Part shown: piece after piece, positions 36,935 to 60,913 of the stretch
How the letters are laid out: each line of letters begins with the position of its first letter
Position numbering within the stretch: position 1 is the first letter of the stretch
From: an uncultured Bacilli bacterium
GTDB taxonomy: Bacteria; Bacillota_I; Bacilli_A; RF39; UBA660
DNA: 64,000 nucleotides
Assembly: GCA_934130405.1 (NCBI GenBank)
Contig: CAKOXX010000001.1
Coordinates: 11,566-75,565, forward strand
Reading direction: 5' to 3'
Translations under genes and position numbers: made by a program
The notes under the pieces: model-generated
Told to the model about the DNA's origin: nothing
Databases searched by the model: none
What the model saw: the letters and a program-made list of their open reading frames with translations, nothing else

Positions 36935-38680
36935 CTAATCTCTTACTTTAATATGAACTTCTCTTAACTGTTCTTCTGTAACATTACTTGGTGCATTCAT
37001 TAAAATATCACTTCCAGAAGCACTCATTGGGAAAGCAATTGTTTCTCTAATTGAATCTTCATCTAAAAGCATCATTAGAATACGATCAAGTCCAGGAGCC
37101 ATACCAGCATGAGGTGGAGCACCATATTGAAAGGCCTCATATAAAGCTTTAAATCTTTTCTTGATTTCATCTTCTTCATAACCTGCAATAGCAAAAACTT
37201 TCTTCATAATTTCTAAGTCATGATTTCTAACAGCACCACTAGATAGTTCAACACCATTACAGACAAAATCAAATTGATAAGCTAAAATATCCTCTATCTT
37301 TTGATCAAGTGCTTCCATTCCACCTTTCGGCATACTAAATGGATTATGCATAAAAGTATATTTTTCTGCTTCTTCATCCCACTCAAACATTGGAAAATCA
37401 TGAATAATAGCAAAAACATATTTATTAGGATCCATAAGATTTAACTTTCTACCAAGTTCCATTCTAATAGAACCGGCTAATTCCAAGGATTTCTTTCTAT
37501 CAGCTATAAAGAATAAAACATCATCTTTTTGTAACCCAGCTTTAAGAATTAAAGCTTCACGTTCATCTTCTGTTAAAAACTTATCAATTGGACCAGCAAA
37601 AGATAAATCCTCATTTACTTTCAAATAACCAATTCCAGGCATTCCAATACTCTTAGCATAATCAACTACTTCATTAAACCAAGAATTACTCTTACTAGCT
37701 AAATTTTCAACCTTTATTCCTTTAACAGGTACTCCTCTAAAAGGACGAAACTCAGTTTCTTCAAACTCTTCCGTTAAATCAATTATTATTAAAGGGTTTC
37801 TTAAGTCTGGTTTATCAGAACCATACTTTTCCATAGCATCTTTATAGGTTAATCTAATAAATGGTGGTTCTGATATATCTTTATCTTTAGAAAATTTCTT
37901 AAATGTCTCATAGAAAACTTTCTCACCCATTTGTAAGACATCCTCCTCAGTAGCAAAAGCCATTTCAAAGTCTAATTGATAAAACTCACCATAAACACGG
38001 TCACTTCTAGCATCTTCATCACGGAAACATGGAGCTATTTGATAGTATTTATCAAAACCAGCACACATTAATAATTGTTTAAATTGTTGAGGAGCTTGGG
38101 GTAAGGCATAAAACTTTCCTTTATATTTTCTACTAGGTACTAGAAAGTCTCTAGCACCTTCTGGAGAAGATGAAGTTAAAATAGGAGTTTGTAGTTCAAT
38201 AAAATCGTCTTCTTCCATTAAGTTTCTTAAAAAGTGAATTACTTTATTACGGAAAAGAATAGATGATTTAACTTTCGGATTTCTTAAGTCTAAGTAACGA
38301 TATTTAAGTCTTACATCTTCTGCCACTTCTTTACTAGTCATTATTTCAAAAGGTAAAACATTCTTACTTTTACCAAGTATTTCTATTGAACTAACTAATA
38401 ACTCAATAGTACCTGTTTCAATTCGGTCATTATAATCATCTTCATCTCTTTTACGAACAATTCCTTTAACAGTAACAGATGACTCTCTTGTTAAATCATC
38501 AAACATCTTATCATCATTACTAACTAATTGTAGTGTTCCATAAAAGTCTCTTAAATCAACAAAGATTACTCCACCATGATCTCTTATATTTTCAATGAAC
38601 CCTACTACCACTACTTCTTTATCTATATCTTTTTCTCTTAAGCTACCAGCATAGCAATCACGATATTTATTTTTAATCAT
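36935..38680 (-). CDS. aspS: Aspartate--tRNA ligase (probably non-discriminating, from context)
   Basis: 581 aa with class IIb motifs (FRDED, GLDR). It is the last gene of the gatCAB operon. Confidence 0.9.
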   Translation of the reverse strand: MIKNKYRDCYAGSLREKDIDKEVVVVGFIENIRDHGGVIFVDLRDFYGTLQLVSNDDKMFDDLTRESSVTVKGIVRKRDEDDYNDRIETGTIELLVSSIEILGKSKNVLPFEIMTSKEVAEDVRLKYRYLDLRNPKVKSSILFRNKVIHFLRNLMEEDDFIELQTPILTSSSPEGARDFLVPSRKYKGKFYALPQAPQQFKQLLMCAGFDKYYQIAPCFRDEDARSDRVYGEFYQLDFEMAFATEEDVLQMGEKVFYETFKKFSKDKDISEPPFIRLTYKDAMEKYGSDKPDLRNPLIIIDLTEEFEETEFRPFRGVPVKGIKVENLASKSNSWFNEVVDYAKSIGMPGIGYLKVNEDLSFAGPIDKFLTEDEREALILKAGLQKDDVLFFIADRKKSLELAGSIRMELGRKLNLMDPNKYVFAIIHDFPMFEWDEEAEKYTFMHNPFSMPKGGMEALDQKIEDILAYQFDFVCNGVELSSGAVRNHDLEIMKKVFAIAGYEEDEIKKRFKALYEAFQYGAPPHAGMAPGLDRILMMLLDEDSIRETIAFPMSASGSDILMNAPSNVTEEQLREVHIKVRD

Positions 38681-40109
38681 TTTTCTTCATCCTCTCTAAT
38701 TCTTCTTTAATTAATTCTCTAGTAAGGTTAGGATTAGCTTGTCTTTTAGTAGCTACCATTACTTTTCCCATAAAGAAATTAATTACTGACATATTATCTT
38801 CTTTAATATATTGTTCAACTTGTAAATTATACTTAGTAAATTCATCTTTTATATATTTAACTAGTTCTTCTTTATCATTAATTTGCGATAAGTTTTCTTT
38901 CTCAATTAATTTAACTGGATCTATCTTCTCTTCGATTGCTTTATAAAGTATTTTCTTAGCATGATCTAGCGACAATTTATCAGCACTTACTAAGTTTATT
39001 AAACTACTTAACATTGAAGGAGTAATATAAAACTCATCTAAAGTTATTTCTAATTTATTTAAGGTTGATAAAATACTAGTTGTTACAAAGTTAACTACTA
39101 AAGATATATCTTTGACATTCTTAACTACTTCTTCAAAGTAATCAGCTAATTTACGATTTTTAGCAATAACACTAGCGTCATAATAATCTAGTCCTAAATC
39201 ATTTTGATAAGTCATTATTCTATCTAATTTTAAGACTGGAATTGACTCTTTCAATTCTTGTTTCTTTGCATCTGTTATTTTAACAGGCGGTAAATTAGCA
39301 TCAACAAAGTATTTATAATCAATAGCATCAACTTTCTCTCGCATTGAGTGTGTTTTTCCCATTTCATCTATACGTCTTGTCTCTTGAATTATTTTTTCAC
39401 CATTTGCTAAGGCTTCACTTTGTCTTTTAATTTCGTATTCAATCGCTTGTTTAACACTACTAAAGGAGTTAATATTCTTCATTTCTACTTTAGTACCTAG
39501 CCTGTCACTACCTTTTTCTTTTAAAGAAATGTTTACATCACAGCGCATTTGTCCTTTATCTGTCTTAGCTTCACTCACCCCAAGATATAAAAATACATCT
39601 TTTAAATCTTCTAAGAATGTAACTGCTTCTAGACTACTAGTAAGACAAGGCTCTGTTACTATTTCAATCAAAGGAACACCACTACGGTTATAATCTATTA
39701 ATGAATAATTCTTATCATGCTCTAAACTAGCCGTATCTTCTTCTAGATGTAACTGATGAATTAGTATCCTTTTAACTTTTCCCTCTACCATAATATCAAG
39801 ATAACCATTTCTTCCCATTGGTTTGGTAACTTGCGTTAATTGATATCCTTTAGGAAGGTCAGGATAAAAATAGTTTTTACGATCAAACATTATAACATCA
39901 GGGTTTTCACAGTGAAGAGCCATGGCGGTTCGTAAAGCATTATAACAAGCTTTTTCATTAACAACTGGTAAAATTCCTGGAAGTCCTAAATCAACAGGTG
40001 AAACATGAATATTAGGAATTTTAGTGTAACTATTCTCACTACTAGAGAAGTTCTTAGAATTTGTTTCTAACTCACAATGTACTTCTAGTCCAATAACAAC
40101 ATCATACAT
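38673..40109 (-). CDS. gatB: Asp/Glu-tRNA amidotransferase subunit B
   Basis: VIGLEVHCEL... N-terminus; 478 aa. Confidence 0.95.
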   Translation of the reverse strand: MYDVVIGLEVHCELETNSKNFSSSENSYTKIPNIHVSPVDLGLPGILPVVNEKACYNALRTAMALHCENPDVIMFDRKNYFYPDLPKGYQLTQVTKPMGRNGYLDIMVEGKVKRILIHQLHLEEDTASLEHDKNYSLIDYNRSGVPLIEIVTEPCLTSSLEAVTFLEDLKDVFLYLGVSEAKTDKGQMRCDVNISLKEKGSDRLGTKVEMKNINSFSSVKQAIEYEIKRQSEALANGEKIIQETRRIDEMGKTHSMREKVDAIDYKYFVDANLPPVKITDAKKQELKESIPVLKLDRIMTYQNDLGLDYYDASVIAKNRKLADYFEEVVKNVKDISLVVNFVTTSILSTLNKLEITLDEFYITPSMLSSLINLVSADKLSLDHAKKILYKAIEEKIDPVKLIEKENLSQINDKEELVKYIKDEFTKYNLQVEQYIKEDNMSVINFFMGKVMVATKRQANPNLTRELIKEELERMKKND

Positions 40110-41560
40110 TATTCTTCACCTCCAATTTGCCCTTTAAGCCCTGTTAATTTTTCTATTTCATTAGCAATATTTAATACTTTCTTGTCTTCTTTTATACCAC
40201 TAGTAATATTAATACCAATCGGACAATCACTGACAAAACCAGATGGAATAGTAATTGATGGAAAACCACCAAAGTTTCCTAAAGCCATATGATTTTCTAG
40301 TAATAAATATTTATCACTTAATTTATCGGTAGCATCAGAAAACTTTGGAGCAGCTCCACCACTACAAGGTAAGATAAGACCATCATAAGTAGTGAATAAT
40401 TCTGTTAATTTTTCTACTAACAGTCTTCTAACACGACAAGCATTTAGATAAAGTTTTTCTTGATTTTCTTTTTGTAAAATATAACTTCCTAATACAAAAC
40501 GACGTTTAATAAGTTCTGAGAAGCCTTCTGTTCTAGTAGCAATTATTAAGGAATTAACGTCATCTTTATTAACTCTATTTCCAAAAGCTATACCAGTTAA
40601 GTTAGAATTATTACTAGTAGCTTCCGCACAAGAGATGGTCATATAAGTTGGATATATCGCTTCTAATAAGGCTTTATCAATTGATACTTCAACAACTTCT
40701 ACTCCTCTAGTTTTTAATCTTTCTAATAAAGAATAAAAATTATCTAAAACTTCCATTAGTTCTTTATCATCAGTATCATATAAGCTTCGATCAACTATTT
40801 CTTTAATATAGAATAGTTTTTTACCAGCAAGTGGTTCATCAATATTTTCTAATAAATCACTATCATCTTGATAAGTTGTCATATCATGAATGTCATAACC
40901 TTTAATAGTGTTAATAACAGTTGCTACATCTTTAACACTTCTTGCAAAACAACCAACATGGTCAAGACTTGATGCAAAAGCAAATAAACCATAACGTGAT
41001 ACCAAACCATAAGTCGGTTTAAAACCAACAACGCCACCGAAAGCAGCTGGCTTTCTAATAGAGTCCCCCGTATCGCTTCCAAGTGCAAAAGGAACTATTC
41101 CTAAAGATACAGCAGCAGCACTTCCAGCACTAGAACCACCGATTTCTCTTGTTACGTCATAAGGATTTCTAACAATACCAGTATGTCCAGTAGTACCAGT
41201 TCCTCCCATCGCTAATTCATCAAGGACTGTTTTCCCAACTAAGACTGCTCCAGCATTTTTTAATTTTTTATAAACGGTTGCATCATAAACTGGAACATAG
41301 TTCTTTAAGATGTTACTAGAAGCAGTTGTTAAGATATTGCTAGTAGAAATATTATCTTTCAAAGCATATGGTATTCCTGCTAACGGACTAGTTCTTTTCT
41401 TTATCTTGCATTTATCACAGATAGTAACAAAAGAATTATAAGTAGCTTGATATTTATGGGCAAGTTGATTTGCTTCATTAAATAACTCCTCACTAGTAAC
41501 ATTTCCATTATCAAGTTCATATCTTAAATCGCTAATTAAACTTTTTCTATAATTCATCAC
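40109..41560 (-). CDS. gatA: Asp/Glu-tRNA amidotransferase subunit A
   Basis: Amidase signature GGSSAGSAAAV; 483 aa. Confidence 0.95.
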   Translation of the reverse strand: MMNYRKSLISDLRYELDNGNVTSEELFNEANQLAHKYQATYNSFVTICDKCKIKKRTSPLAGIPYALKDNISTSNILTTASSNILKNYVPVYDATVYKKLKNAGAVLVGKTVLDELAMGGTGTTGHTGIVRNPYDVTREIGGSSAGSAAAVSLGIVPFALGSDTGDSIRKPAAFGGVVGFKPTYGLVSRYGLFAFASSLDHVGCFARSVKDVATVINTIKGYDIHDMTTYQDDSDLLENIDEPLAGKKLFYIKEIVDRSLYDTDDKELMEVLDNFYSLLERLKTRGVEVVEVSIDKALLEAIYPTYMTISCAEATSNNSNLTGIAFGNRVNKDDVNSLIIATRTEGFSELIKRRFVLGSYILQKENQEKLYLNACRVRRLLVEKLTELFTTYDGLILPCSGGAAPKFSDATDKLSDKYLLLENHMALGNFGGFPSITIPSGFVSDCPIGINITSGIKEDKKVLNIANEIEKLTGLKGQIGGEE

Positions 41561-41877: not shown

Positions 41878-42108
41878 AAAACGAAAAAGACTCTAAATCC
41901 CAGTAAAGGGACGAGTCTTTTACCCGCGGTACCACCCAATTTATTATCGGTTAGATAATCGCTTATCTTGTTAACGGGAACTACCCGGCTTAGTCTACTT
42001 TGTTCTTTAAGCACTCCGAAGTGTTATTCGTAAATACTTTATCTTAACTGTTTTCACCAACCACAGCTTCTCTTATAAGTAAAGTATTCCTACTCGTCTT
42101 CATCAACG
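41878..42108 (-). promoter_or_regulatory. T-box riboswitch leader, probable Asn (AAC) specifier
   Basis: On the minus strand: Stem I with GA/K-turn (TGATGA), AGTA, AGAGA and GGTGAAA elements. Specifier loop is ...CGAAT-AAC-A-CTTCGG (codon at 42025..42023). T-box sequence AATTGGGTGGTACCGCGGG lies at 41942..41924. Terminator is AAAGACTC...GAGTCTTTTTCGTTTTC. Confidence 0.85.
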
Positions 42109-42223
42109 TTTTCTAATAAATTTTACAATGATATTTTATAATTTGTCAATTATTTATATAAATTTTTTGAAAAATTTATTATTTTAGTTTTTACAATTTG
42201 TAGCTAATTATACATGTCATATG

Positions 42224-42484
42224 TTAGTTTTTATTATTAGAAATTTCTTCTAGTTCAATAATAGAAAGTCCTGTATACGTAGAAATTTTATCTAGACTTT
42301 CATTGTTACTTAACATCAGCTTAGCTATTTCTAGTTTTGTTTCTGTTTTTCCAATAATAACACCATTATCAACGCCTTCTGAATAAGCAGAATTTCGACA
42401 TTTTTCTTCTACCTTCTCAGCGTTATACCAAGCATTAAATTCATCATTTAGTTTCAATTTCTCAATCTCATCCATTATGACCAA
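42224..42484 (-). pseudogene. Stand-alone duplicate of the C-terminal ~85 aa of the upstream Rpn-like gene
   Basis: VIMDEIEKLKLNDEFNAWYNAEKVEEKCRNSAYSEG ... ELEEISNNKN matches residues ~190-283 of the 283-aa protein. Confidence 0.5.
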
Positions 42485-42511
42485 TCCTTTCTTGCTTTAT
42501 TTTTAATATCT

Positions 42512-43363
42512 TTAATTTTTATTGTTAGAAATCTCTTCTAGTTCATTAAGAGTAAGTCCAGTTGCATTTATAATTGTATCCTTGTCTATATTCAATGTTA
42601 GTAAATTCTTAACTATTTCTAACTGTTTATGCTTTTCTCCAATAGTAACACCATTATCAGCGCCTTTTGTATAGCCTTCTGAATAGCCCTCAGAATAAGC
42701 AGAATTTCGACATTTCTCTTCCACTTTCTCAGCATTATACCAAGCATTAAATTCATCATTAAGTTTCAATTTCTCAATCTCATCCATTATAACCAGTCCT
42801 TTCTTACTATTACCAGTTATCTTCTTTAACTCCTCATCAGTTTGTGCTGTTAACATTGATAATAGCATTTCGTCTTCGTTAGCTCCAGTATAACAAATGT
42901 CTTTGTAATTTACTAGGTATACATCATAAATTTTGATACCATTTTTTACTAAATTATATTTTCTATTCATTAATTCATACTCTAAAACGGTATCCTCATG
43001 CTCAAACTTATCATTATTTAAACTAATTTGAATTACTTCTTTGGTAGTATATTTTTCACCTTGTTCTAATCTGCTACCGGCTAGACGAAAAGCATAAGTA
43101 AGATTCTTTACTGTCGTATAATTCTCCATCGATTTATTGATTTCAACATTAACAATAATATCTCCTTCTTCTAGTAATAAGTCTAGACGATAATCTTTTC
43201 TTTTGTTACCGCTATTTAACTCATTATCAATAATCTTATAATTAGATAAATCAATCCCAATTATATGACTAAATAACTCAAGATAGATATTTCTTGTCCT
43301 TTCTTCTTTCATGAGATATTTCATAGTTGTATCTGATAAGATACTAATAAAATTATTATTCAT
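42512..43363 (-). CDS. Rpn-family / PD-(D/E)XK nuclease-family transposase-like protein
   Basis: N-terminal pattern ...KYLM...DYRLDLLLEEGDIIVNVEINK resembles PDDEXK_2 'putative transposase' proteins. Confidence 0.6.
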   Translation of the reverse strand: MNNNFISILSDTTMKYLMKEERTRNIYLELFSHIIGIDLSNYKIIDNELNSGNKRKDYRLDLLLEEGDIIVNVEINKSMENYTTVKNLTYAFRLAGSRLEQGEKYTTKEVIQISLNNDKFEHEDTVLEYELMNRKYNLVKNGIKIYDVYLVNYKDICYTGANEDEMLLSMLTAQTDEELKKITGNSKKGLVIMDEIEKLKLNDEFNAWYNAEKVEEKCRNSAYSEGYSEGYTKGADNGVTIGEKHKQLEIVKNLLTLNIDKDTIINATGLTLNELEEISNNKN

Positions 43364-43580: not shown

Positions 43581-44756
43581 TCAAGAAATATCAATTACAT
43601 CATAATAACTAGTCTTACCAGTATAGTTTACATCACTAATAGGAGTTTTAACTCCACTTTCACTATATTCTATATAATCAATTAAATGCTTATCACACCA
43701 CTCTTTACTTGGTTCATTACCTTCTCCAAACATTAAAGTTAAATCTATAATCATATAATCTTTAAAAGTAAACTCTGCCCAATCATATGATTCTATGTAA
43801 AAATGGTCATTTTCACTATTAGAAACGACAATTCCAGTATATATTCCTGTTGCATTAGGACTATAAATGAATTGAGTTTTTGGCCAATATTCTATTCCGT
43901 CTATTACTGTTTTGTGTGCAAATTCAAGTATTTTTTCCAAATTATGTCCCAACTTTTCAACTATAGATAATATATTAACATTATAATAATAATTGTGCCC
44001 AACACTTTTCATACTAGAAGCTGTCATCGCTATAGAATTACCCAAATAAGTAAGTCCATCAGTTGATAAAGTATAAGAGTCATCAGAATTCACTATTAAT
44101 TTTGCATATGTGCCTTTCCTAACAACTGCTATATTATTTTTTAATACATAATATTTTCTACATTCTCCATCTACGTAATAATTTCCTCCTGCATCTTGAC
44201 ACTTTTTATTTAAACTTTCTTCATTAGTTGATGCTCCTTCTATTCTAAGTTTTGCTTTAAAGACTTTATTTTCTTCTTCAGCTGTCATATCGCTTGAAAA
44301 CCATAATCTTAATTTATAGTTAATAGTTTGTCCACTATTAATTATTCCACTTTCTAGTTTTTGATTTCCTGTTAATGACTTAGCAACATTATTAGAACTA
44401 TCTCTTTCCAAACTATAATGAACATATTTCTGATCAATTCTAACATCACCTTCATCTAGTGGTTGATTATCTAAATAGATTGTATATGATGATGCTACTT
44501 TACCATTATTAGTTAATTTAAATGAATAGTAATTATTTAAATTAACACCTTCACTATCTGATAATGGTCCATCTGCTGATACTGTTATCGCATTACCATC
44601 TGATTCATCTAATACAAGTGATAAACTTCCAACTTTCAGAACACTATCTTTAGTTGCAAAGAAACTAGTTTGCAAAAATGCATATGATATTCCTAAAATA
44701 ATAAATATCAATATTACTAATAATATAACTAAAAATATATTTTGTCCCTTTTTCAT
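43581..44756 (-). CDS. SipW/TasA-type signal, TasA-like N-domain protein with a unique C-terminal domain (391 aa)
   Basis: N-terminus KKGQNIFLVILLVILIFIILGISYAFLQTS...VLKVGSLSLVLDES...FKLTNNGKVAS resembles the TasA/CalY signal plus first beta-strands (GGTWAAFND...GTLDLS...FENNGSL). Confidence 0.6.
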   Translation of the reverse strand: MKKGQNIFLVILLVILIFIILGISYAFLQTSFFATKDSVLKVGSLSLVLDESDGNAITVSADGPLSDSEGVNLNNYYSFKLTNNGKVASSYTIYLDNQPLDEGDVRIDQKYVHYSLERDSSNNVAKSLTGNQKLESGIINSGQTINYKLRLWFSSDMTAEEENKVFKAKLRIEGASTNEESLNKKCQDAGGNYYVDGECRKYYVLKNNIAVVRKGTYAKLIVNSDDSYTLSTDGLTYLGNSIAMTASSMKSVGHNYYYNVNILSIVEKLGHNLEKILEFAHKTVIDGIEYWPKTQFIYSPNATGIYTGIVVSNSENDHFYIESYDWAEFTFKDYMIIDLTLMFGEGNEPSKEWCDKHLIDYIEYSESGVKTPISDVNYTGKTSYYDVIDIS

Positions 44757-44787
44757 TTTTTACCTCTTTCTAATATTCAAACAGCAC

Positions 44788-44819
44788 AAAAAAACAGAAT
44801 AAGCTTTTTCCTATTCCAT
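44788..44819 (-). terminator. Leader terminator-like hairpin 1
   Basis: Minus strand ATGGAATAGG-aaaaag-CTTATTCTGT (with G-U pairs) followed by T7, about 30 nt upstream of the gene start. Confidence 0.5.
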
Positions 44820-44850
44820 TACTTTTACACTATTAAAGAAAGCAGGTTTA

Positions 44851-44940
44851 TTACTTAATAAGTACCCCCCCCCAAGTTAATTTTAAGTTAACTTTTCTAG
44901 ACTTAAAAAGTGAGCAACTATTTTTAAAACAACTTTTCAT
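44851..44940 (-). CDS. Leader uORF 1 (29 aa) containing the G9 tract
   Basis: AGGTGA lies 6 nt before the ATG at 44940. Translation: MKSCFKNSCSLFKSRKVNLKLTWGGVLIK*. Confidence 0.5.
   Translation of the reverse strand: MKSCFKNSCSLFKSRKVNLKLTWGGVLIK
44865..44873 (-). repeat. Homopolymeric tract, C9 on plus strand (G9 in the transcript)
   Basis: Counted directly: agta-ccccccccc-aagtt. Confidence 0.95.
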
Positions 44941-45014
44941 AATTACTCACCTACTTTCTTTACTTTTATAGTTTATCACAGTTATTTTTGTATCTCAATA
45001 TATTTATTGAAATA

Positions 45015-46652
45015 CTATCCAATGGTAACAGTTCCTTTTCCTCCCAACTTATCTTCTAACCAAGCTTTAGTAGTTGCATCCTTAGTAATAATATTTATAT
45101 CTGATGCTACTAACGTAAATGTATTATCATAATTTGAAACAGATGTAAATACAGCTTTTCTTAAATCCAACCTTTTCAAACTTTTACACCAATTAAAAGT
45201 ATGAAACATATCAGTTACATTTTCTGTATTAAAACTACTAAGATTTAATTCTTGCAGATTAATATTAAAAGCAAACATATCACTCATTGTAGTAACTTTA
45301 CTTGTATCAAAACTACTTAAATCTAATTCAGTTAAAGAACCATAACTAGAAGTACCAAGATTTGTATCCCACATATTAAACATTGATGACATATCTGTTA
45401 CTTTTGATGTATCAAAACTAGATAAATTGATTGAGAACAATTTTTTACAATTACAAAACATCCCACCCATATTAGTTACATTACTAGTATTAAAATTACT
45501 CAAGTCTAGTGTTGTTAAATTCTTATCTCCGTTAAACATATGAAACATATCTGTTACTTTTGAAGTATTAAGATTGTCAATATTTAATGTCTGTAAACTC
45601 GTATTGTATGCAAACATATCTCGCATTATTGTCACGTTTGAGGTATCAAAACTACTTAAGTCTAATAAAGTTAAGCTACCAGTACTAGCAGCATCATCCG
45701 TTTTATTCCACATATTAAACATTCCATACATATTTGTAACTTTAGACGTATCAAAGTTACTTAAATCGATATTTAATAAACTTTTACAATTACTAAACAT
45801 TTGTGACATATCTGTAACCTGCGAGGTATTTAACAAAGTTAAATTTTCTATTGTTTTTAGTTCAGTAAAATAGTTAAATAGGTAACTAGAATTACTATTA
45901 GCAAATATTTCACCATTACTTTGGATATATAAAGTATTGGTACTATCATCGTTAGATACTATTTTACCAATAACACTATTATTATCATTTGCTGATAAGT
46001 CATAACTCTTAGTAGTGTTTTCTATATCATTTATTTTATCTTGAAATACTATCTTAGTAACTGTTTGTTTTTCTTCATCGATAAGTTTAAGAGATGATGC
46101 CATAGTATTAATATTTTGGCTAGCTTCTATTCTAAGTTTTGCTTTAAATACTTTATTTTCTTCTTCAGCTGTCATATCACTTGAAAACCATAATCTTAGT
46201 TTATAGTTGATAGTTTGTTTACTATTTATTATTCCACTTTCTAGTTTTTGCTCTCCAGTTAAAGACTTAGCAACATTATTAGAATCATCTCTTTCTAAAC
46301 TATAATGGACATATTCTTGGTCAATTCTGACATCACCTTCATCTAATGGTTGATTATCTAAATAGATTGTATATGATGATGCTACTTTTCCATTATTAGT
46401 TAATTTAAATGAATAGTAATCATTTAAATTAACACCTTCACTATCTGACAATGGTCCATCTGCTGATACTGTTATCGCATTACCATCTGACTCATCTAAT
46501 ACAAGTGCTAAACTACCTACTTTTAAAACATTATCATTACTTGCAAAGAAACTTGTTTGTAAAAATGCATATGATATTCCTAGAATAATAAATATCAAGA
46601 TTATAAGTAATATAATTAAAAATATATTTTGTTTATTAATCTTAGATTTCAT
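45015..46652 (-). CDS. TasA-like N-domain fused to BspA-type (DUF285) leucine-rich repeats (545 aa)
   Basis: The N-terminal ~180 aa are nearly identical to the 391-aa protein. The C-terminal part repeats LDLSxFDTSxVTxMxxMFxxCxxL, the DUF285/BspA LRR pattern. Confidence 0.7.
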   Translation of the reverse strand: MKSKINKQNIFLIILLIILIFIILGISYAFLQTSFFASNDNVLKVGSLALVLDESDGNAITVSADGPLSDSEGVNLNDYYSFKLTNNGKVASSYTIYLDNQPLDEGDVRIDQEYVHYSLERDDSNNVAKSLTGEQKLESGIINSKQTINYKLRLWFSSDMTAEEENKVFKAKLRIEASQNINTMASSLKLIDEEKQTVTKIVFQDKINDIENTTKSYDLSANDNNSVIGKIVSNDDSTNTLYIQSNGEIFANSNSSYLFNYFTELKTIENLTLLNTSQVTDMSQMFSNCKSLLNIDLSNFDTSKVTNMYGMFNMWNKTDDAASTGSLTLLDLSSFDTSNVTIMRDMFAYNTSLQTLNIDNLNTSKVTDMFHMFNGDKNLTTLDLSNFNTSNVTNMGGMFCNCKKLFSINLSSFDTSKVTDMSSMFNMWDTNLGTSSYGSLTELDLSSFDTSKVTTMSDMFAFNINLQELNLSSFNTENVTDMFHTFNWCKSLKRLDLRKAVFTSVSNYDNTFTLVASDINIITKDATTKAWLEDKLGGKGTVTIG

Positions 46653-46684: not shown

Positions 46685-48544
46685 TTATATCGCAAATGGA
46701 TTTAGAGCAGTTCCATCTCCCTTAATTATTTGAATATCTGCACGAAGACTTATAACTGGACGAACACTGTAGAGATTTGAGACATAACCCCAAGGATTCA
46801 GACTGCCCGAAGGAAGCACTCTCCAAACTTGTGCAACAGAGCTGTAAGACTCAAAGTTAGCCGGAGAGAGTGTCCAAAAATATTGTCCATTATATAGATA
46901 ATAATTACTGTTTGCTGTGTTATATATTCCGCCGGCCATTCCTACTTCATCTGCTGTAATAAGTGAAATTGGATAATCTAATTTAGCACTTTCATTTGAC
47001 ACTTTAAATTTATCATTATCTTGTGCACATTTTAAACTTGGTGCTTTCTTTTCATATAAACGTTCATATGTTCCATAAGTAGTAGTTGGTGGCGTTAAAT
47101 AACCATTACCCCAATTTATACTTCGATCATTACAGAATGTTTCATCTGCTAAATATGATGTATAACTTGTTAAATTGTTTTTATACCATGTATCTAGTGT
47201 ATTCTTCATTGTATTGTTTGTATTATTTGTTACTGCATCGGCATAACTATCACTGCTATAAGAAATTGGTTGGACTATCATTGTTGTATCATTTGAATAT
47301 CCTGTGATTTTATATACTACATTACAACTTGTATTTAAACAACTATATAGTTTTCCTGATACAATTTCATCCGAATTATCTTTCCAAGTTAATTGTTTGG
47401 TAGTTCCGGTTAATGTGAATTTTTTTGTTGTTTCATCAAAAGTGTATCCTGTTCCAAAGTTATATTTTGAGGTATTAGCAAACCAATTGTAACCTGTTGT
47501 TCCATTATTTTCATGTAGAGAAAACTTTTCATTATATTTATATCCGACATAAGTTGGATCCCAATATTTTTCATTAAACACTGAATTACCTATGTTTGTA
47601 GCAGTTCCTGTATCTGACGTTGTTTTTCCTGAATAAATCATTCTGATACTTCCATCTCCATTACGACGGATAATTCTCCAAGTATATCCTGCAAATGATA
47701 CATAGTTATTTTTCACTGCTCCTCTATAATAGTAGCTGTCTCCCTCATCATCCTCTGCCATGAATAAACCCTCATCGGTAGTAGCAGTTTTAGAAAAGTC
47801 TGGGGTTCCTTTGGCATTTATATTAGTCTTGGCACTTTCTACTGATATTTCATGATTGTTCATTACTAACATACAATCTGATAAAGTATTAAATCCATTA
47901 TCTTTGCAATAGGTATCTTCTACTTCTGCTACGGTATCTGAGGTTTGTCCGTAAACATTTACTTTTACTTTATATACTAATCCACCGTTATCACTTTGTG
48001 GATTATAACTTTCATCTACCCATAGTCTTAATCGATATTTGATTTCTGTATCTCCTTGTTGATTTAAATTTCCTACAAATAAACTCATCATATCTGATGG
48101 GCGACCAGTATAAACATTTCCAGTTGGGTCTTCTGAATAAGTTTTTGGTGGCATTGCTTCTTCTTCAGTACCATCGGAATTAACTTTCGTAAGATATAGT
48201 TTGATATTCTTTCCATCAAAGGTGTTTCCATTCTCTTCTTTCACTGCTATCTCATAGTTAATATCTGTATTCCCTGCTATTGATGATTTAATGGTAAAAT
48301 CAAAATATTCTCCAGAATTAAGTCTTTTCTTTCCAGTCGTATCGGTCGTCGGAAGAGCATTACTCATAGATATAATATTAGTACTTTCTGTATAATTCAT
48401 CGTTATTGCTCCAGTAGTTATGGTATTCAACTTTTGACCTATTCCTGAATAGTTAAATGCTGCATAACTGATACCAATAACAGCAATTAGTAAGATAAAA
48501 GTTGTTCCGATAGTTAATATATTTTTAAACTTTTGTTTATTCAT
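46685..48544 (-). CDS. SipW/TasA-type signal surface protein (619 aa)
   Basis: GISYAAFNYSG...ITTGAITMNY closely resembles TasA GGTWAAFND...ASGTLDLS. The C-terminal end ...VRPVISLRADIQIIKGDGTALNPFAI is shared with the 503- and 495-aa paralogs. Confidence 0.65.
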   Translation of the reverse strand: MNKQKFKNILTIGTTFILLIAVIGISYAAFNYSGIGQKLNTITTGAITMNYTESTNIISMSNALPTTDTTGKKRLNSGEYFDFTIKSSIAGNTDINYEIAVKEENGNTFDGKNIKLYLTKVNSDGTEEEAMPPKTYSEDPTGNVYTGRPSDMMSLFVGNLNQQGDTEIKYRLRLWVDESYNPQSDNGGLVYKVKVNVYGQTSDTVAEVEDTYCKDNGFNTLSDCMLVMNNHEISVESAKTNINAKGTPDFSKTATTDEGLFMAEDDEGDSYYYRGAVKNNYVSFAGYTWRIIRRNGDGSIRMIYSGKTTSDTGTATNIGNSVFNEKYWDPTYVGYKYNEKFSLHENNGTTGYNWFANTSKYNFGTGYTFDETTKKFTLTGTTKQLTWKDNSDEIVSGKLYSCLNTSCNVVYKITGYSNDTTMIVQPISYSSDSYADAVTNNTNNTMKNTLDTWYKNNLTSYTSYLADETFCNDRSINWGNGYLTPPTTTYGTYERLYEKKAPSLKCAQDNDKFKVSNESAKLDYPISLITADEVGMAGGIYNTANSNYYLYNGQYFWTLSPANFESYSSVAQVWRVLPSGSLNPWGYVSNLYSVRPVISLRADIQIIKGDGTALNPFAI

Positions 48545-48575
48545 AAAGACTTATTCCTTTCATTTTGGTATACAC

Positions 48576-48618
48576 AAAAAAGATAGATTTATATTATCAG
48601 TGATATTAATCTATCTTT
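48576..48618 (-). terminator. Leader terminator-like hairpin 2
   Basis: Minus strand AAAGATAGATT-(18-nt loop)-AATCTATCTTT followed by TTTTGTG. Confidence 0.5.
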
Positions 48619-48654
48619 ATTCCACGATAAAAGAAAGTAAGTCTTTTTCTTAAA

Positions 48655-48711
48655 TTAGTAAGTACCCCCCCCCCACGTTAATTTCTGGTTAACTTGAGTC
48701 AATCGATACAT
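48655..48711 (-). CDS. Leader uORF 2 (18 aa) containing the G10 tract
   Basis: AGGTGA lies 5 nt before the ATG at 48711. Translation: MYRLTQVNQKLTWGGGTY*. Confidence 0.5.
   Translation of the reverse strand: MYRLTQVNQKLTWGGGTY
48665..48674 (-). repeat. Homopolymeric tract, C10 on plus strand (G10 in the transcript)
   Basis: Counted directly: agta-cccccccccc-acgtt. Confidence 0.95.
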
Positions 48712-48794
48712 ACTAATCACCTACTTCCTATTTTTTATTATCAGTATTCTTGACATCTTAATAATATCATAATCTTTGAAATTTTACAATTAAT

Positions 48795-49226
48795 TTATCT
48801 TGATAAAGTTTCATTATAATTTTCTAAGAAAAAATAGTCTTGGTTTTTAAAGTCACAGATAAAATAATTATTATTTAAACTATTAAGTATCTTTAGAAAA
48901 AAAGAATTATAGTAATTAGTCTTTAATCTCATATAACTTCTCTTCACAATTAAAGACCCAATCTCATCATGACCTGGTTCGTTATAGTAATGCACCCCTT
49001 TTCTCTTACTATAAGGAATAGATTGATGATACTTAATAAAGATATGTTGGTCGATTTTCTCCTTATCAATCTTTTTAGTCAACTGATGAAATAAACTATA
49101 ACCATACTTAGCATTTTCTTCTCCTAAAAAATAAATTTGTTCTAATATCTGATACAGAATAGATGGCTTATCTTGATACAAACTTTTAAACTCATCCTTA
49201 ATCTCAAAAATAAAAAACTCTCTCAT
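48795..49226 (-). CDS. Hypothetical protein (weak resemblance to SirA/DUF2522)
   Basis: 143 aa. The overall pattern (FIFEIKDEF... ...FICDFKNQDYFFL) is reminiscent of Bacillus SirA, but this is only an impression. Confidence 0.35.
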   Translation of the reverse strand: MREFFIFEIKDEFKSLYQDKPSILYQILEQIYFLGEENAKYGYSLFHQLTKKIDKEKIDQHIFIKYHQSIPYSKRKGVHYYNEPGHDEIGSLIVKRSYMRLKTNYYNSFFLKILNSLNNNYFICDFKNQDYFFLENYNETLSR

Positions 49227-57111: not shown

Positions 57112-58623
57112 TTATTCTGCTAAAATGAATGGATCAGTTGATGAACCTGTTCCAGAGGTTATATTTATTGTTGACTTTAGATAGACGACTGGACGTTCCT
57201 CAAGAGCAGCATAGGCATAAGTATTGTGAACAGCTCCATAAGCATAAACATCGAAAACATAAGCAGAATCAGTAGCAAACGAGCTCATTGTCCATTGTAT
57301 TTTTGATGATTTATAAAGCCAGTCATTATCTCTACAATTAATATAGCTACTATCATCCCAACTATATAATTCTACTGTCATACAACTCATTCTATTTGTA
57401 CTACTTCCGCCACTTGTTGCATATCCATAGTCACTTGGGTACATTAATCCTACTTTTCCTATCCAATTGGTACTGCGTCCACTATACACTGCTGTTCCTC
57501 TTTCATTTTTATAAAAATCTGATGTTGATAATCCATTTGTTGAACTAAAATAATCTGCAGGACTACCTAGATACCACTTTGCATCTCCTATCATTAGTTT
57601 TGCTGTATCTGTTAGACCAGTAGAAGTAAAATTACATGATGTTGTACCATTATATTGTCCATAGTAACAGGTCCCACTCTTTCTATTCCAATATAAACTA
57701 CCTCCATAAGTTTCACTTTCATGTCCTGGATTTAGTAAATAGTTTAGTCTTGCTTCTGGCCAGCTATTCTTTCCCCAATGATTTTCTGCTCCAGTTGATA
57801 AATCTTTATTATCCCATGAGTAAGCCCCTATTGATTCATTTCTTATTATCTTTAGTCTCTTTTCTTTTTTTCCTGTTCCATCATCGACATCAAATACTCC
57901 GATTATTCGCCATAATTCATCACTAAATTTAACATAATTATTTGGATTTGCTCCGATATAGCGATAATCAGTGGTTACTTCTAACTGTTCAGTTTCTTCA
58001 TGGGAAAATGTCCACATTTGATTTTTTTGATCATCCGTTGCTGTATTATAGTCTAAATCTTCTGGATTAGCATTTGCTACCAAAGTTTCTGTTGCTGGTG
58101 GATTACTTAATAATAAGAATACTGTTGTTCCACTTGGTAATGTTAAGTTAGAATTATTTAAGCCCATTGAGAAACCTATTTTAATTTGCTTGCCAGTTGC
58201 TCCCTTAATTTTTATCTTATAAGTTAATGTCTTTCCAGCTTCTACTGATACTCCTTCAACCGTTGGAATAGTTGGGCTATCAGATGTATAACCTATCTCA
58301 ATTGAACTATCTGATAGATTGTAGTAATAGATTGAATTTTTTACTGTTCTATCGCTTGTATTAGTTACTGTTAAAGTAATAGTATCATTATCTGTTGATG
58401 GTGTATAAGTAATTACGCCAGTTCCATTAATTGTTACGGAGTTACTTCCTATCGCTACTGTTCCATTTAAAGTACCTGTTACTACGCTATATTGCTGTAC
58501 TCCTTGAACAGTAAACCACGCATAAGAAAAGTATCCCATCAGCATTAAGCCACTTACTCCAAATAAAATAAACATATAACTTGTTGATATTTTTGTATCC
58601 AATAATTTCTTAAATATTTTCAT
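57112..58623 (-). CDS. SipW/TasA-type signal surface protein (503 aa)
   Basis: N-terminus ...LMLMGYFSYAWFTVQG...VVTGTLNGTV. C-terminus ERPVVYLKSTINITSGTGSSTDPFILAE. Paralog of the 495-aa and 619-aa proteins. Confidence 0.65.
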   Translation of the reverse strand: MKIFKKLLDTKISTSYMFILFGVSGLMLMGYFSYAWFTVQGVQQYSVVTGTLNGTVAIGSNSVTINGTGVITYTPSTDNDTITLTVTNTSDRTVKNSIYYYNLSDSSIEIGYTSDSPTIPTVEGVSVEAGKTLTYKIKIKGATGKQIKIGFSMGLNNSNLTLPSGTTVFLLLSNPPATETLVANANPEDLDYNTATDDQKNQMWTFSHEETEQLEVTTDYRYIGANPNNYVKFSDELWRIIGVFDVDDGTGKKEKRLKIIRNESIGAYSWDNKDLSTGAENHWGKNSWPEARLNYLLNPGHESETYGGSLYWNRKSGTCYYGQYNGTTSCNFTSTGLTDTAKLMIGDAKWYLGSPADYFSSTNGLSTSDFYKNERGTAVYSGRSTNWIGKVGLMYPSDYGYATSGGSSTNRMSCMTVELYSWDDSSYINCRDNDWLYKSSKIQWTMSSFATDSAYVFDVYAYGAVHNTYAYAALEERPVVYLKSTINITSGTGSSTDPFILAE

Positions 58624-58644
58624 AAACTACCTCTTTCTACGCAC

Positions 58645-58677
58645 AAAAAACAGAATAAGATTAGATTCCTATCCTGT
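58645..58677 (-). terminator. Leader terminator-like hairpin 3
   Basis: Minus strand ACAGGATAGG-aatctaat-CTTATTCTGT (two G-U pairs) followed by TTTTTTGTG. Confidence 0.5.
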
Positions 58678-58714
58678 TTTTTTTACACTATTAAAGAAAG
58701 TAGTTTTCTCTACC

Positions 58715-58777
58715 TTATATAAGTACCCCCCCCCAAGTTAATTTCTGGTTAACTTGAGTTCCTAAGATATTTATCAT
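58715..58777 (-). CDS. Leader uORF 3 (20 aa) containing the G9 tract
   Basis: ATG at 58777. Translation: MINILGTQVNQKLTWGGVLI*. Confidence 0.5.
   Translation of the reverse strand: MINILGTQVNQKLTWGGVLI
58726..58734 (-). repeat. Homopolymeric tract, C9 on plus strand (G9 in the transcript)
   Basis: Counted directly: aagta-ccccccccc-aagtt. Confidence 0.95.
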
Positions 58778-58860
58778 ATTACCATCTACTTTCTTTTTAT
58801 TGTTCACTTAAATTTTATCATTTTTTTATCATCTATACAATATGTTTATTTTCTAAATTA

Positions 58861-60348
58861 TTATTCATCAGATAAAACATAAGGATTTGATTTTTCACCT
58901 GTTCCTGATGCTATTTTCACAGAAGATTTCAAATAAACTGTTGGTCTTGCAGTATGATTACTATAGCTATTAGCTGTACTAAGATAACTTTGTTGTACAC
59001 GAAATGTAGAATAAGAAATATCTGATCTAGAATTTATAGTCCATTGCATAGCTGATGATTTATAAAGCCAGTCATTATTATAACAATCAGAATAGTTATT
59101 CCAACTGGCAAGCGAAGTTTGTAAACATGTATTTCTATTAGTTGTACTTCCTCCACTTGTGGCATAACCATAATCAGAAGGATAAATTAGTCCTACTTTT
59201 CCTATCCAAGATGTATCTCTTCCACTAAATACAGTATTTCCCCTTTCATAAGAGTAAAAATTTGAGACTAGTCCTGTTGCACTTGTTGTCCCTCCCAAAT
59301 ACCACTTTGCATTATCTATAGCAGCCTTTGCTTCCATCGTTAAACCAGTAGATGTAAAATCACATGATGAAGTTGAATTACCACTTCCCTTGTAACAATT
59401 TCCACTCTTTCTATTCCAATATAAGCTTCCACCATAACTTTCACTTTCGTGTCCTTCATTCAATAAATAATTAAGTCTTGCATCAGTCCAGTTATTTTTA
59501 CCATTTGCACTTTCTGCACCAGTTGATGTATTCTTATTGTCCCAACTATAACTTCCGATAGCATTGTTTCTTATTATTTTTATTCTCTTTTCTACTTTAC
59601 CGGTTCCATCATCAACATCAAATACCCCAATTATTCGCCATACCTCATCATTAAATGTTACATAATTATTAGGACTGCTTCCTATATATCTATAATCAGT
59701 TAATGCCTCTGTTTGGTCTGTTTTATCATGAGAAAATTTCCACATTTGATTCTTTTGATCATCGGTTGCTGTATTGTAATCCAAATCTTCTTTATTAGCA
59801 TTTGTTATTAAGTTTTCCACTCCAGTTGGTTCTAACTTTTCAAAAGCATTGGTTCCAACTGGTAATGTCAAATTGGAATTATTTAAGCCCATTGATGAGC
59901 CTATTTTTATTTGTTTACCAGTTGCTCCTGTTATCTTTATATAGTAGGTTAGTATACCTCCTTTTTCTACTGATACTCCAGTAACTTCAGGAATAGTTGG
60001 ACTATCTACAGTATAACCAATTTTAATTGAGCTATCTGATAAATCATAGTAACAAATAGAGTTTTTTGCTGTTCTATCATTTGTGTTAGTTACTGTTAAA
60101 GTAATAGTGTCACTATCTGTCGATGGTGTATAAGTAATTACGCCAGTTCCATTAATTGTTACGGAGTTACTTCCTATCGCTACTGTTCCATTTAAAGTAC
60201 CTGTTACTACGCTATATTGCTGTACTCCTTGAACAGTAAACCACGCATAAGAAAAGTATCCCATCAGCATTAAGCCACTTACTCCAAATAAAATAAACAT
60301 ATAACTTGTTGATACTTTTGTATCAAATAACTTTCTAAATATTTTCAT
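58861..60348 (-). CDS. SipW/TasA-type signal surface protein (495 aa)
   Basis: Paralog of the 503-aa protein. Shares a 193-nt perfectly identical 5' segment (60122..60314 vs 58397..58589). Confidence 0.65.
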   Translation of the reverse strand: MKIFRKLFDTKVSTSYMFILFGVSGLMLMGYFSYAWFTVQGVQQYSVVTGTLNGTVAIGSNSVTINGTGVITYTPSTDSDTITLTVTNTNDRTAKNSICYYDLSDSSIKIGYTVDSPTIPEVTGVSVEKGGILTYYIKITGATGKQIKIGSSMGLNNSNLTLPVGTNAFEKLEPTGVENLITNANKEDLDYNTATDDQKNQMWKFSHDKTDQTEALTDYRYIGSSPNNYVTFNDEVWRIIGVFDVDDGTGKVEKRIKIIRNNAIGSYSWDNKNTSTGAESANGKNNWTDARLNYLLNEGHESESYGGSLYWNRKSGNCYKGSGNSTSSCDFTSTGLTMEAKAAIDNAKWYLGGTTSATGLVSNFYSYERGNTVFSGRDTSWIGKVGLIYPSDYGYATSGGSTTNRNTCLQTSLASWNNYSDCYNNDWLYKSSAMQWTINSRSDISYSTFRVQQSYLSTANSYSNHTARPTVYLKSSVKIASGTGEKSNPYVLSDE

Positions 60349-60369
60349 AAACTACCTCTTTCTACACAC

Positions 60370-60402
60370 AAAAAACAGAATAAGATTAAATTCCTATCCT
60401 GT
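60370..60402 (-). terminator. Leader terminator-like hairpin 4
   Basis: Minus strand ACAGGATAGG-aatttaat-CTTATTCTGT followed by TTTTTTGTG. Confidence 0.5.
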
Positions 60403-60437
60403 TTTTTACACTATTAAAGAAAGTAGTTTTTTCTACC

Positions 60438-60500
60438 TTATATAAGTACCCCCCCCCAGGTTAATTTCTGGTTAACTTGAGCTTCTAAGATATTCATCAT
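60438..60500 (-). CDS. Leader uORF 4 (20 aa) containing the G9 tract
   Basis: GAGGG lies 4-7 nt before ATGATG at 60500. Translation: MMNILEAQVNQKLTWGGVLI*. Confidence 0.5.
   Translation of the reverse strand: MMNILEAQVNQKLTWGGVLI
60449..60457 (-). repeat. Homopolymeric tract, C9 on plus strand (G9 in the transcript)
   Basis: Counted directly: aagta-ccccccccc-aggtt. Confidence 0.95.
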
Positions 60501-60559
60501 ATTACCCTCTACTTTCTTTTTATTGTTCACCTAAATTTTACCAAATATCATATAAATAT

Positions 60560-60913
60560 TCAACAATATTTATTTTCTATAATATATGCTATTTCCCTTC
60601 CATTTCTGCCAATCTCAATACCGTTATTCTTCTGAATTATTCTTTGCATTTTAATATTATCAAATGAAACTGAACATATAACTGATTTATTAACTTTGGA
60701 TAATAGCAATTTAAATACAGCACTTCCATATCCCTTATTTTGATATTTTTGAGCAATAATTATAAATAGTTCATCTCTTACTTTTTTACGTATAATTGCA
60801 TAACCAATTTTAATATTGCTTAAATAACATTCATATAGTTGATCACCTTTTGATAATTCAAACTTTTGAATTAAATCATCAGTTATTTTAGTCACTTCAT
60901 TTAAACTTATCAT
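60560..60913 (-). CDS. GNAT-family N-acetyltransferase
   Basis: 117 aa with Q-x-x-G-x-G/A-like motif QNKGYGSAVFKLLL. Overlaps the upstream gene by 4 nt. Confidence 0.65.
   Translation of the reverse strand: MISLNEVTKITDDLIQKFELSKGDQLYECYLSNIKIGYAIIRKKVRDELFIIIAQKYQNKGYGSAVFKLLLSKVNKSVICSVSFDNIKMQRIIQKNNGIEIGRNGREIAYIIENKYC

Follow-up and report, generated by a model that had tools for sequence, protein, structure and literature searches.

Poly-G leader reading frames before a surface-protein family in gut Bacilli: a proposed phase-variable transcription attenuator

The window analyzed here, a 64,000-nt stretch of contig CAKOXX010000001.1 (assembly GCA_934130405.1) from an uncultured Bacilli bacterium, contains four leaders on the minus strand, each in front of a gene for a secreted or surface protein and each built from a short upstream open reading frame (uORF) with a poly-G tract and an intrinsic-terminator-like hairpin. 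We found that exactly one reading frame stays open from the tract into the hairpin while the other two close well before it, and that the length of the tract differs among closely related leaders. We propose, with a probability of roughly 0.7, that each leader attenuates transcription in a phase-variable manner through its leader peptide, with the number of G residues deciding whether a ribosome reaches the terminator. An earlier note, made from the letters of the window, had described the leader at 58.7 kb as a composite cis-regulatory attenuator; the leader is indeed a well-defined cis-regulatory element whose uORF, G-tract, and terminator are real and conserved and appear functionally linked, while the setting of the frame by tract length had been missed.

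One long and two short frames after the G-tract

The four leaders belong to a family of more than 100 from uncultured human-gut Bacilli, with ~14–17 copies in single genomes. After the G-tract there is exactly one open frame in each of the 40 genome copies that extend far enough downstream, and likewise in 90 of 90 unique downstream sequences. This long frame passes the CTTTCTTT element, in most cases as T-F-F, and runs to +46 to +72 relative to the tract, so that its stop lies 10–28 nt (median 10) past the 5′ base of the hairpin; the T-run begins 7–28 nt further. The two short frames close at +6 to +20, leaving 24–40 nt up to the hairpin base. In total, the long frame comprises 1,633 open codons, whereas stops account for 280/1576 and 185/1590 (12–18%) in the other two frames over the same stretch. 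As assembled, each of the four window copies has a short frame and is therefore predicted to be OFF; three would need G8 for the long frame, and the fourth, which has G10, would need G9. Of 103 unique leaders, 21 have the long frame and the other 82 a short frame.

The leader at 58.7 kb, read on the minus strand, begins with a putative promoter (58812–58840) in which TTGTAT (58840–58835) is followed, after a 17-nt spacer, by the TG-extended −10 box TGaTAAAAT (−10 at 58817–58812). TG-extended −10 boxes occupy the equivalent relative position in the other window copies. A simple consensus scan flagged neither the terminator at 58.7 kb nor this promoter, the latter because its −35 box fits at only 3 of 6 positions. 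Element A, AAAGAAAGTAG (58786–58796), comprises the Shine-Dalgarno (SD) region of the uORF and the 5′ strand of a closing helix, being the perfect complement of element C, CTACTTTCTTT (58693–58703). With G9, as assembled, the uORF (58715–58777) opens at an ATG at 58777–58775, encodes MINILGTQVNQKLTWGGVLI in the short frame, and has a stop codon that ends at 58715. Within it a GTTAAC-N6-TTAAC hairpin (58737–58753), invariant in the four window copies, abuts the 5′ side of the G9 tract (58726–58734), the proposed slipped-strand switch, which supplies the codons W-G-G-V. Three-frame analysis shows that with G8 the uORF would extend over 58669–58777, ending in WGGYLYKVEKTTFFNSVKKTG and a TAG at 58671–58669 in the 5′ arm of the terminator. 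Element C, which contains a TTNTTT motif, is read as T-F-F in this long frame and complements the uORF SD and, in part, the SD of the main gene; the earlier note's anti-SD segment, AACTACTTTCT (58695–58705), covers nearly the same letters. The intrinsic-terminator-like hairpin (58645–58680) follows, with a core of ACAGGATAGGA/TCTTATTCTGT, arms ACAGGATAGG and CTTATTCTGT (58651–58677), an A-tract before it, and T6 at 58650–58645. The SD region of the main gene, AGAAAGAGGTAGTT (58638–58625), and its ATG (58623–58621) complete the leader (58621–58638). Thus, the promoter, uORF, G9 run, anti-SD segment, hairpin with T6, and main SD all lie where the earlier note had placed them.

These elements stand out against the composition of the window. 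At 28.9% G+C, its only G or C runs of at least 6 are the four leader tracts, and the core TTAACNTG7 (TTAACNTGGGGGGG) occurs 4 times compared with 0.00 expected. The 198-nt leader folds with −45.5 kcal/mol (z = −4.3 versus shuffles). Searched against Rfam 15, the leader matched no family at gathering thresholds and gave only noise at E up to 10; the only window matches at gathering thresholds were to an unrelated T-box and a tRNA.

The same ordered parts do recur, as had been claimed, at three other positions on the minus strand, with G10 in the 48.6-kb copy and G9 in the others. The second leader (60349–60563) precedes a 495-aa paralogue (58861–60348); its uORF, MMNILEAQVNQKLTWGGVLI, contains G9 at 60449–60457 and is in a short frame. 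The third (48545–48789) precedes a 619-aa gene (46685–48544) and, behind that, a 545-aa gene with PARCEL repeats (45015–46652), and its uORF, MYRLTQVNQKLTWGGGTY, contains the G10 tract at 48665–48674, again in a short frame that a change to G9 would convert into the long one. The fourth (44757–44998), with uORF MKSCFKNSCSLFKSRKVNLKLTWGGVLIK and G9 at 44865–44873 in a short frame, precedes a 391-aa gene (43581–44756).

Conservation and variation across the leader family

We collected the family by scanning for the pattern GTTAAC-N6-TTAAC-N-TG7. The genome scan returned 42 loci, 2 of them chance matches in Alphaproteobacteria and the rest from ~7 uncultured "Bacilli" metagenome-assembled genomes, including Clostridium sp. 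CAG:451; a metagenome scan added 78 loci (4 by chance), for which the human gut was the main source. The related loci sum to 887 kb (29% GC), and 132 of 132 runs of G8 or longer in them are leader tracts. An nhmmer search for diverged leaders in the fetched loci gave 8 extra matches, comprising 3 complete near-canonical leaders, 1 decayed copy lacking the G-run, one chance match, and fragments of leaders truncated where a locus ends. In locus L070 (713–898, minus strand), a decayed leader retains a recognizable promoter-like region, C element, and terminator, while its G-tract and GTTAAC core have degenerated, and it is followed by no evident gene.

The uORF is kept throughout the family. Essentially all of the ~44 genome-derived copies have an SD and an ATG whose frame matches that of the core, even though the peptides begin with N-terminal parts that are unrelated in sequence and measure anywhere between 3 and 29 codons. 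The core itself, VNxxLTWGG, is conserved as a peptide, and T, C, G, and A all occur at the wobble position of the Thr codon. Two loci, L046 (core GTTAACCAATAGTTAAC) and L118 (GTTAACTAACAGTTAAC), have an in-frame stop in the uORF hairpin loop, upstream of the G-tract; they look like null alleles and would be locked OFF if the attenuation model is right.

Tract length ranges from G6 to G11 across the family. We formed groups of leaders with a flank identity of at least 92%, some of which mix paralogues with orthologues, and found G7, G8, G9, and G10 within a 21-member group, G7–G10 in a second, and G8 and G9 in a third (cluster 4). Short and long states thus coexist inside one flank group. The 48.6-kb locus of the window gives a direct example, with G10 here, G8 in L065, and G9, the long frame, in L107, both flanks being 94–99% identical. 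Many contigs start or end within a few bases of the tract (L015, which ends in G8; L054, at 14289–14313; L084; L093, which ends in G6; L103; and L089), and those of L139 and L140 begin 5 nt before G9. Such breaks could reflect reads that differ in tract length, low sequencing quality downstream of poly-G, or collapse of the repeated leader.

A survey free of the search pattern, made in the upstream regions of six protein homologues including the window's own protein, delimits how far the design extends. The P0050 loci, encoding a 502-aa protein, have canonical leaders. The P0063 loci (L130–133) have a diverged leader, GTTAACAC followed by G10, without the second TTAAC and without the Trp codon; in its long frame the C element is read as N-Y-F-L instead of T-F-F, and the stop still falls in the hairpin loop. 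At the P0040 loci the leader has no G-tract and is in the short frame in three assemblies, whereas in a fourth assembly of this type (L127) a 2-nt deletion in an A-run produces the long frame, and a gene caller found the resulting 32-aa ORF. The P0117 and P0033 loci provide two genes without any attenuator, L128 and L129 being homologues from which it is deleted or absent. The earlier note's claim that the ordered parts occur always and only before these genes therefore holds inside the window and breaks down in relatives, where genes lack the G-tract or the whole leader; the design is kept where the element exists. The natural variants L127, L128, and L129 fit a negative cis-element.

Among loci L134–L140, which all encode the identical 502-aa P0050 protein downstream, the sequence after the G-tract is identical, whereas L137 differs from the others in its upstream half, which resembles that of the 60.4-kb window copy, and in having a tract of G10 where they have G9. 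It thus seems that the conserved core serves as a joint at which recombination or gene conversion exchanges promoter/uORF halves between cassettes, and it might shuffle promoters and genes. Between the extended −10 box (TGATATTAT) and the uORF SD, a block TAAGATGTCAAGAATACTGATAA is present in the window (48740–48789) and in most leaders of the 48.6-kb type (for example, L007, L009, L013, and L124), and it is kept even in L128, a relative that has lost uORF and terminator. This block could be an operator or a piece of a 5′-end structure.

The hairpins that follow the uORF have folding energies of −8 to −18.7 kcal/mol and are followed by T5–T8. Compensatory changes are found in 4 of 11 pairs, with one pair being AU in 10 sequences and GC in 10, and distinct hairpin sequence classes occupy the identical position in the family; judged by these sequences, the leader terminator is real. 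All 5 pairs of the GTTAAC-N6-TTAAC hairpin are retained in 22 of 22 sequences, a hairpin that yields no covariation because the search pattern required its sequence; we suspect that it may serve as an RNA polymerase pause hairpin. The CTTTCTTT element is paired with the uORF's own SD in the minimum free energy (MFE) fold of the 58.7-kb leader and in those of 23 of 25 representative leaders, and 84.5% of cells are paired in this register compared with 35–60% when the register is slid. Neither MFE nor centroid folds contained a 2:3-type antiterminator helix rivalling the terminator. We set aside an RNAduplex permutation on the helix between the uORF SD and CTTTCTTT (cognate −14.2 versus non-cognate −11.9 kcal/mol), because relatedness confounds it and extensions in the flanks drive its result, for example, AAATGGTAGGTGTTACT with AGTAACACTACCATTT in the Clostridium sp. 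CAG:451-like subfamily (a leader type first met in FR901083).

Proposed attenuation mechanism and its alternatives

In the mechanism that we propose, transcription would start at the TG-extended promoter and a ribosome would load on the uORF while the leader is being synthesized; afterwards CTTTCTTT would pair with the uORF SD and close the leader as a long hairpin. The poly-G tract would change length by slipped-strand mispairing at replication and in this way set the downstream frame. In two of the frames the ribosome would halt 6–20 nt past the tract, 24–40 nt before the hairpin, so the terminator would fold and transcription would end at the T-run (OFF). In the third frame the ribosome would cross CTTTCTTT, stop 10–28 nt inside the hairpin, and cover its 5′ arm, so no terminator would form and transcription would read through to the surface gene (ON); the passage of this ribosome would also free the main SD from CTTTCTTT. 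Each gene would switch stochastically and independently of the others, and the expected result is therefore a variable surface coat.

The anatomy of the leaders matches a logic established experimentally in Streptococcus gallolyticus pil1/pil3. An Escherichia coli terminator was almost fully repressed when a stop codon was nearby and reached maximal efficiency when the stop was beyond ~30 bp (PMC4824070). Because the stops of the leader family lie on both sides of this ~30-bp threshold, we propose that slippage sets the frame, with the long frame ON and the short frames OFF. The anatomy of the leaders, their frame design, the polymorphism of tract length, and the conservation of the hairpin are direct observations.

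Several points weigh against the proposal. The tracts of the 58.7-kb and 60.4-kb leaders show no change in length, three other related assemblies all having G9; in one related assembly, a G-to-T substitution in these leaders shortens the run and leaves the frame unchanged. Some of the length differences elsewhere could be homopolymer assembly errors, because many of the metagenome contigs have low coverage, and the independent observations number well below the copy count, because the family members are closely related. Covariation in the helix between the uORF SD and CTTTCTTT is not above shuffles, since both strands are conserved. The finding of 21 long-frame leaders among 103 fits a mostly OFF state and proves nothing. 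Switching at high frequency in the population, the long frame as the ON state, and close coupling of ribosome and polymerase are all steps that we infer from sequence. In Bacillus subtilis the polymerase generally outruns the ribosome, so tight coupling would need a pause.

The GTTAAC hairpin and the TTNTTT in CTTTCTTT might supply such a pause, although this is speculation. TTNTTT is a NusG-dependent pause motif (PMC9963633), and its reading as a pause here is speculative because it carries little information in AT-rich DNA. A broader version of the proposal, which we put forward only tentatively, is that the lineage runs a "phasome" of ~15 or more independent poly-G leader attenuators, one per surface cassette, with dedicated timing features. 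The GTTAAC hairpin and the TTNTTT element would then pause the polymerase and let a pioneer ribosome catch up, and sequestration of the uORF SD would exclude any ribosome other than the co-transcriptional one. Slippage on G9, during transcription or by the ribosome, might additionally produce a graded leakiness.

We weighed four other explanations for the leaders. The earlier note had assigned the anti-SD segment to the SD of the main gene, and one could accordingly read the system as control of translation, in which CTTTCTTT pairs with the main SD, translation of the uORF relieves or imposes the block, and the hairpin is mainly a spacer. Complementarity of this kind is present in the window copies, where the duplexes of C with the main SD range from −8.5 to −22.6 kcal/mol; the value at 58.7 kb is −14.3 kcal/mol (from the L043 copy, whose C and SD segments match those of the window), and the strongest, at the 48.6-kb leader, covers the start-codon region too. 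However, cognate duplexes are no stronger than non-cognate ones (−10.44 versus −10.41 kcal/mol, permutation p = 0.45) and barely stronger than shuffles (−7.9 to −8.8 kcal/mol). Because CTTTCTTT complements the uORF SD, it will complement any SD, and the uORF SD is its more consistent partner, as the MFE folds indicate. The hairpin, moreover, has the T-run and the compensatory changes of a terminator. We consider control mainly at this level unlikely. A ribosome in the long frame would melt the pairing as well, so sequestration of the main SD could act as a second lock; given that cognate pairs have no advantage, we do not place it in the core mechanism. Alternatively, the leaders might be physiological attenuators for which tract length is incidental, with ribosomes stalling at rare GGG-GGG/UGG codons or on the VNxxLTWGG nascent peptide and thereby sensing Gly- or Trp-tRNA or a stress in translation or secretion. 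GGG should be rare at 28.9% G+C, the peptide core is conserved while the Thr wobble base varies, and classical attenuators act by stalling. The sequence of the core was, however, imposed by the search pattern, and relatives recovered without the pattern lack W or LTW (T-P-G-G in L030, V-N-T-G-G-G in L130) or the tract itself. In addition, the folds offer no antiterminator hairpin to oppose the terminator, and stalling leaves both the one-long/two-short design and the length polymorphism unexplained, so we regard it as a poor candidate.

An RNA switch that works without translation would have the G-tract pair, in a manner tuned by its length, with a C/U-rich partner, namely, CTTTCTTT, the 3′ arm of the terminator, or a small RNA in trans. 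Helicobacter pylori offers a precedent, the small RNA RepG targeting a variable G-repeat of tlpB (PMC8295292). Single-sequence folds do pair the tract with pyrimidines upstream of the hairpin, and an RNAalifold consensus of 13 leaders joins it to CUUUCUUU by G-U and G-C pairs and the SD to the terminator 3′ arm. We do not trust this consensus, which is odd and weak (−5.8 kcal/mol), because the terminator classes align poorly. Such G-U-rich pairing is itself weak and does not explain why SD, ATG, and frame are conserved across unrelated uORF N-termini or why the stops are frame-specific, and we judge this switch very unlikely. The leader could finally be a functionless 5′ part of a recently amplified gene cassette, its G-tract a neutral hotspot or an assembly artifact. 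The copies are closely related, many lie at contig ends, coverage is often low, and mosaic leaders suggest frequent gene conversion. Yet the frame is kept over many uORF length classes, the long frame is open where stops make up 12–18% of the others, the hairpin has compensatory changes, a diverged lineage holds the design in another register, and G-runs occur nowhere else in the 887 kb of related DNA; we hold a functionless leader to be highly improbable. We conclude that each of these rivals fails on the kept uORF frame, the one-long/two-short stops, and the tract polymorphism taken together. We also rejected the G-tract as a promoter spacer (TTAACT-16-TATAAG), since the would-be −10 box is not conserved in other subfamilies and the evidence for the uORF explains the tract better.

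Controlled genes and known leader switches

The gene controlled by the 58.7-kb leader (57112–58623, minus strand) encodes a 503-aa secreted or surface protein whose N terminus comprises a K-rich start, a transmembrane (TM) segment, and the motif FSYAWF. This N-terminal signature is found in five window genes; four have their own leader, and the fifth, a 545-aa gene with PARCEL repeats (45015–46652, minus strand), lies 32 nt behind the 619-aa gene. Across the family, the proteins downstream of the leaders all have a K-rich start and one hydrophobic helix followed by xSYA(A/L/F/W)(F/L). Every controlled gene thus encodes a signal- or TM-bearing protein of a single multigene family. Signal- or TM-bearing surface proteins are the usual target class of contingency loci.

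The label "TasA-like" given to these genes before found no backing. Searches of the N-terminal domains against Pfam and NCBIfam at E up to 10 gave no TasA/camelysin (Peptidase_M73) or SipW-signal match, and a PDB sequence search with the controlled protein returned no relative. An AlphaFold2 model of the 503-aa protein is poor, with a predicted local distance difference test (pLDDT) value of 47 and only the N-terminal β-sandwich folded with any confidence, and Foldseek with this model retrieved only generic immunoglobulin (Ig)-like/β-sandwich matches. The N-terminal motif, xSYA(A/L/F/W)(F/L), may resemble that of TasA, a likeness on which the label was based, and a relationship to TasA is unsupported by profiles or fold. 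The 503-aa protein has >7,700 homologues, all unnamed. The 545-aa (45015–46652; PARCEL/DUF285 repeats) and 391-aa (43581–44756) proteins are near-identical over an N-terminal region of ~180 aa and unrelated in their C-terminal parts; PARCEL/DUF285 repeats occur in surface proteins of Mycoplasma and Listeria. From these sequences, the surface family seems to combine one constant module at the N terminus with C-terminal modules that vary.

Other elements lie close to the leaders. Directly adjoining the surface-protein cluster (42224–43363, minus strand) are a 283-aa Rpn-family (PD-(D/E)XK) recombination-promoting nuclease/transposase-like gene and then an ORF of 86 aa, in which the C-terminal part of that gene recurs and which therefore looks like a partial duplication. 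A T-box leader (41904–42115, minus strand; 135.9 bits, E = 4e-30), part of which overlaps a listed 155-aa GTG ORF, lies upstream of 483-aa and 478-aa ORFs (38673–41560). Immediately upstream of the 48.6-kb leader (48795–49226, minus strand) is a gene whose 143-aa product matches PF10747 (E = 1.7e-10) and is thus like SirA, the sporulation inhibitor of replication, which is unexpected in an apparently small-genome lineage.

Gene callers and RNA-motif searches will miss leaders of this kind, because they match no Rfam family and the proteins behind them are all annotated as hypothetical. They nonetheless leave a signature that can be sought in metagenomes, namely, an SD-preceded uORF with a homopolymer, of which one frame ends in a terminator and two end ~30 nt before it. 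The ON or OFF state of surface genes could then be read straight from assemblies or reads. As a compact attenuator that mutation would program, the leader is also a candidate for testing and reuse in synthetic biology.

Among known systems, the trp and his leaders and pyrBI of E. coli, in the last of which the leader ORF runs through the attenuator, are decided by the position of the leading ribosome relative to a hairpin. The poly-G leaders similarly combine a leader peptide with an intrinsic terminator, and the helix between the uORF SD and CTTTCTTT is like the 1:2 helix, with its default that no translation gives termination. Unlike trp and his, they appear to contain no run of regulatory codons read through tRNA charging, and the input would be a heritable change in DNA length rather than a metabolite; W-G-G codons are present and are not conserved in the pattern-free relatives, and the folds contain no competing 2:3 helix. 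Contingency loci with poly-G or poly-C tracts are found in ORFs and promoters of Neisseria, Campylobacter, and Haemophilus, and Moraxella uspA1 has a poly-G tract in its 5′ untranslated region. The poly-G leaders share with these loci tracts of 8–10 G, an association with surface proteins, and strain polymorphism in length, but their tract lies outside the structural gene and the promoter spacer and would act through the frame of a leader ORF and a terminator. In Clostridioides difficile cwpV, an invertible element in the 5′ leader acts, in one of its orientations, as an intrinsic terminator; a surface protein is likewise switched heritably ON and OFF there by termination that is conditional, but through site-specific DNA inversion and without a uORF or ribosome.

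The closest parallel is Streptococcus gallolyticus pil1/pil3, the only experimentally described terminator toggle based on a repeat in a leader ORF that is known to us after a literature search. The earlier note knew of no attenuator in which a homopolymer-bearing leader ORF, SD sequestration, and a leader terminator are combined; pil1/pil3 does unite a leader ORF that bears a repeat with a terminator in the leader (PMC3894217). In pil1/pil3, GCAGA repeats in the leader ORF alter its frame; short peptides end at least 28–39 nt before the terminator and give low expression, whereas longer peptides end within or after it, the ribosome blocks the hairpin, and expression is high, a logic confirmed in 2014 by start-codon, stop-codon, and terminator-deletion mutants (PMC3894217). 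The poly-G leaders display the elements of this type: a leader ORF with SD and start, a length-polymorphic repeat, an intrinsic terminator, and a frame-dependent stop (90/90). Like pil1/pil3, they place a promoter-proximal, repeat-bearing leader ORF and an intrinsic terminator before surface-protein genes, in a gut-associated Bacilli-class organism. They differ in having a G6–G11 homopolymer in place of 13–23 GCAGA pentamers, with no sequence similarity; in that one of three frames is long, where both out-of-frame states are long in pil1; in forming a multi-copy regulon of a paralogous protein family (4 in the window, ~14–17 per genome), where pil1/pil3 control one or two operons; and in two further structures, a conserved helix in which the SD and start region of the uORF are sequestered and a hairpin (GTTAAC) directly beside the tract. 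The pil1/pil3 mechanism is experimentally established, whereas that of the poly-G leaders is proposed from sequence. Because the tract is a G homopolymer and the leader has no GCAGA array, we regard the poly-G leader as an analogue and not a homologue of pil1. The homopolymer tract, the large multi-copy regulon, and the helix hiding the uORF's own SD are new here, while the logic itself has precedent. The family points to an independent origin of the principle, here with a homopolymer, and to its capacity for scaling up to a many-gene surface switchboard in abundant uncultured gut bacteria. The poly-G leaders are most likely an independent, homopolymer-based form of the mechanism that a single streptococcal system has made known, expanded to a surface-protein regulon.

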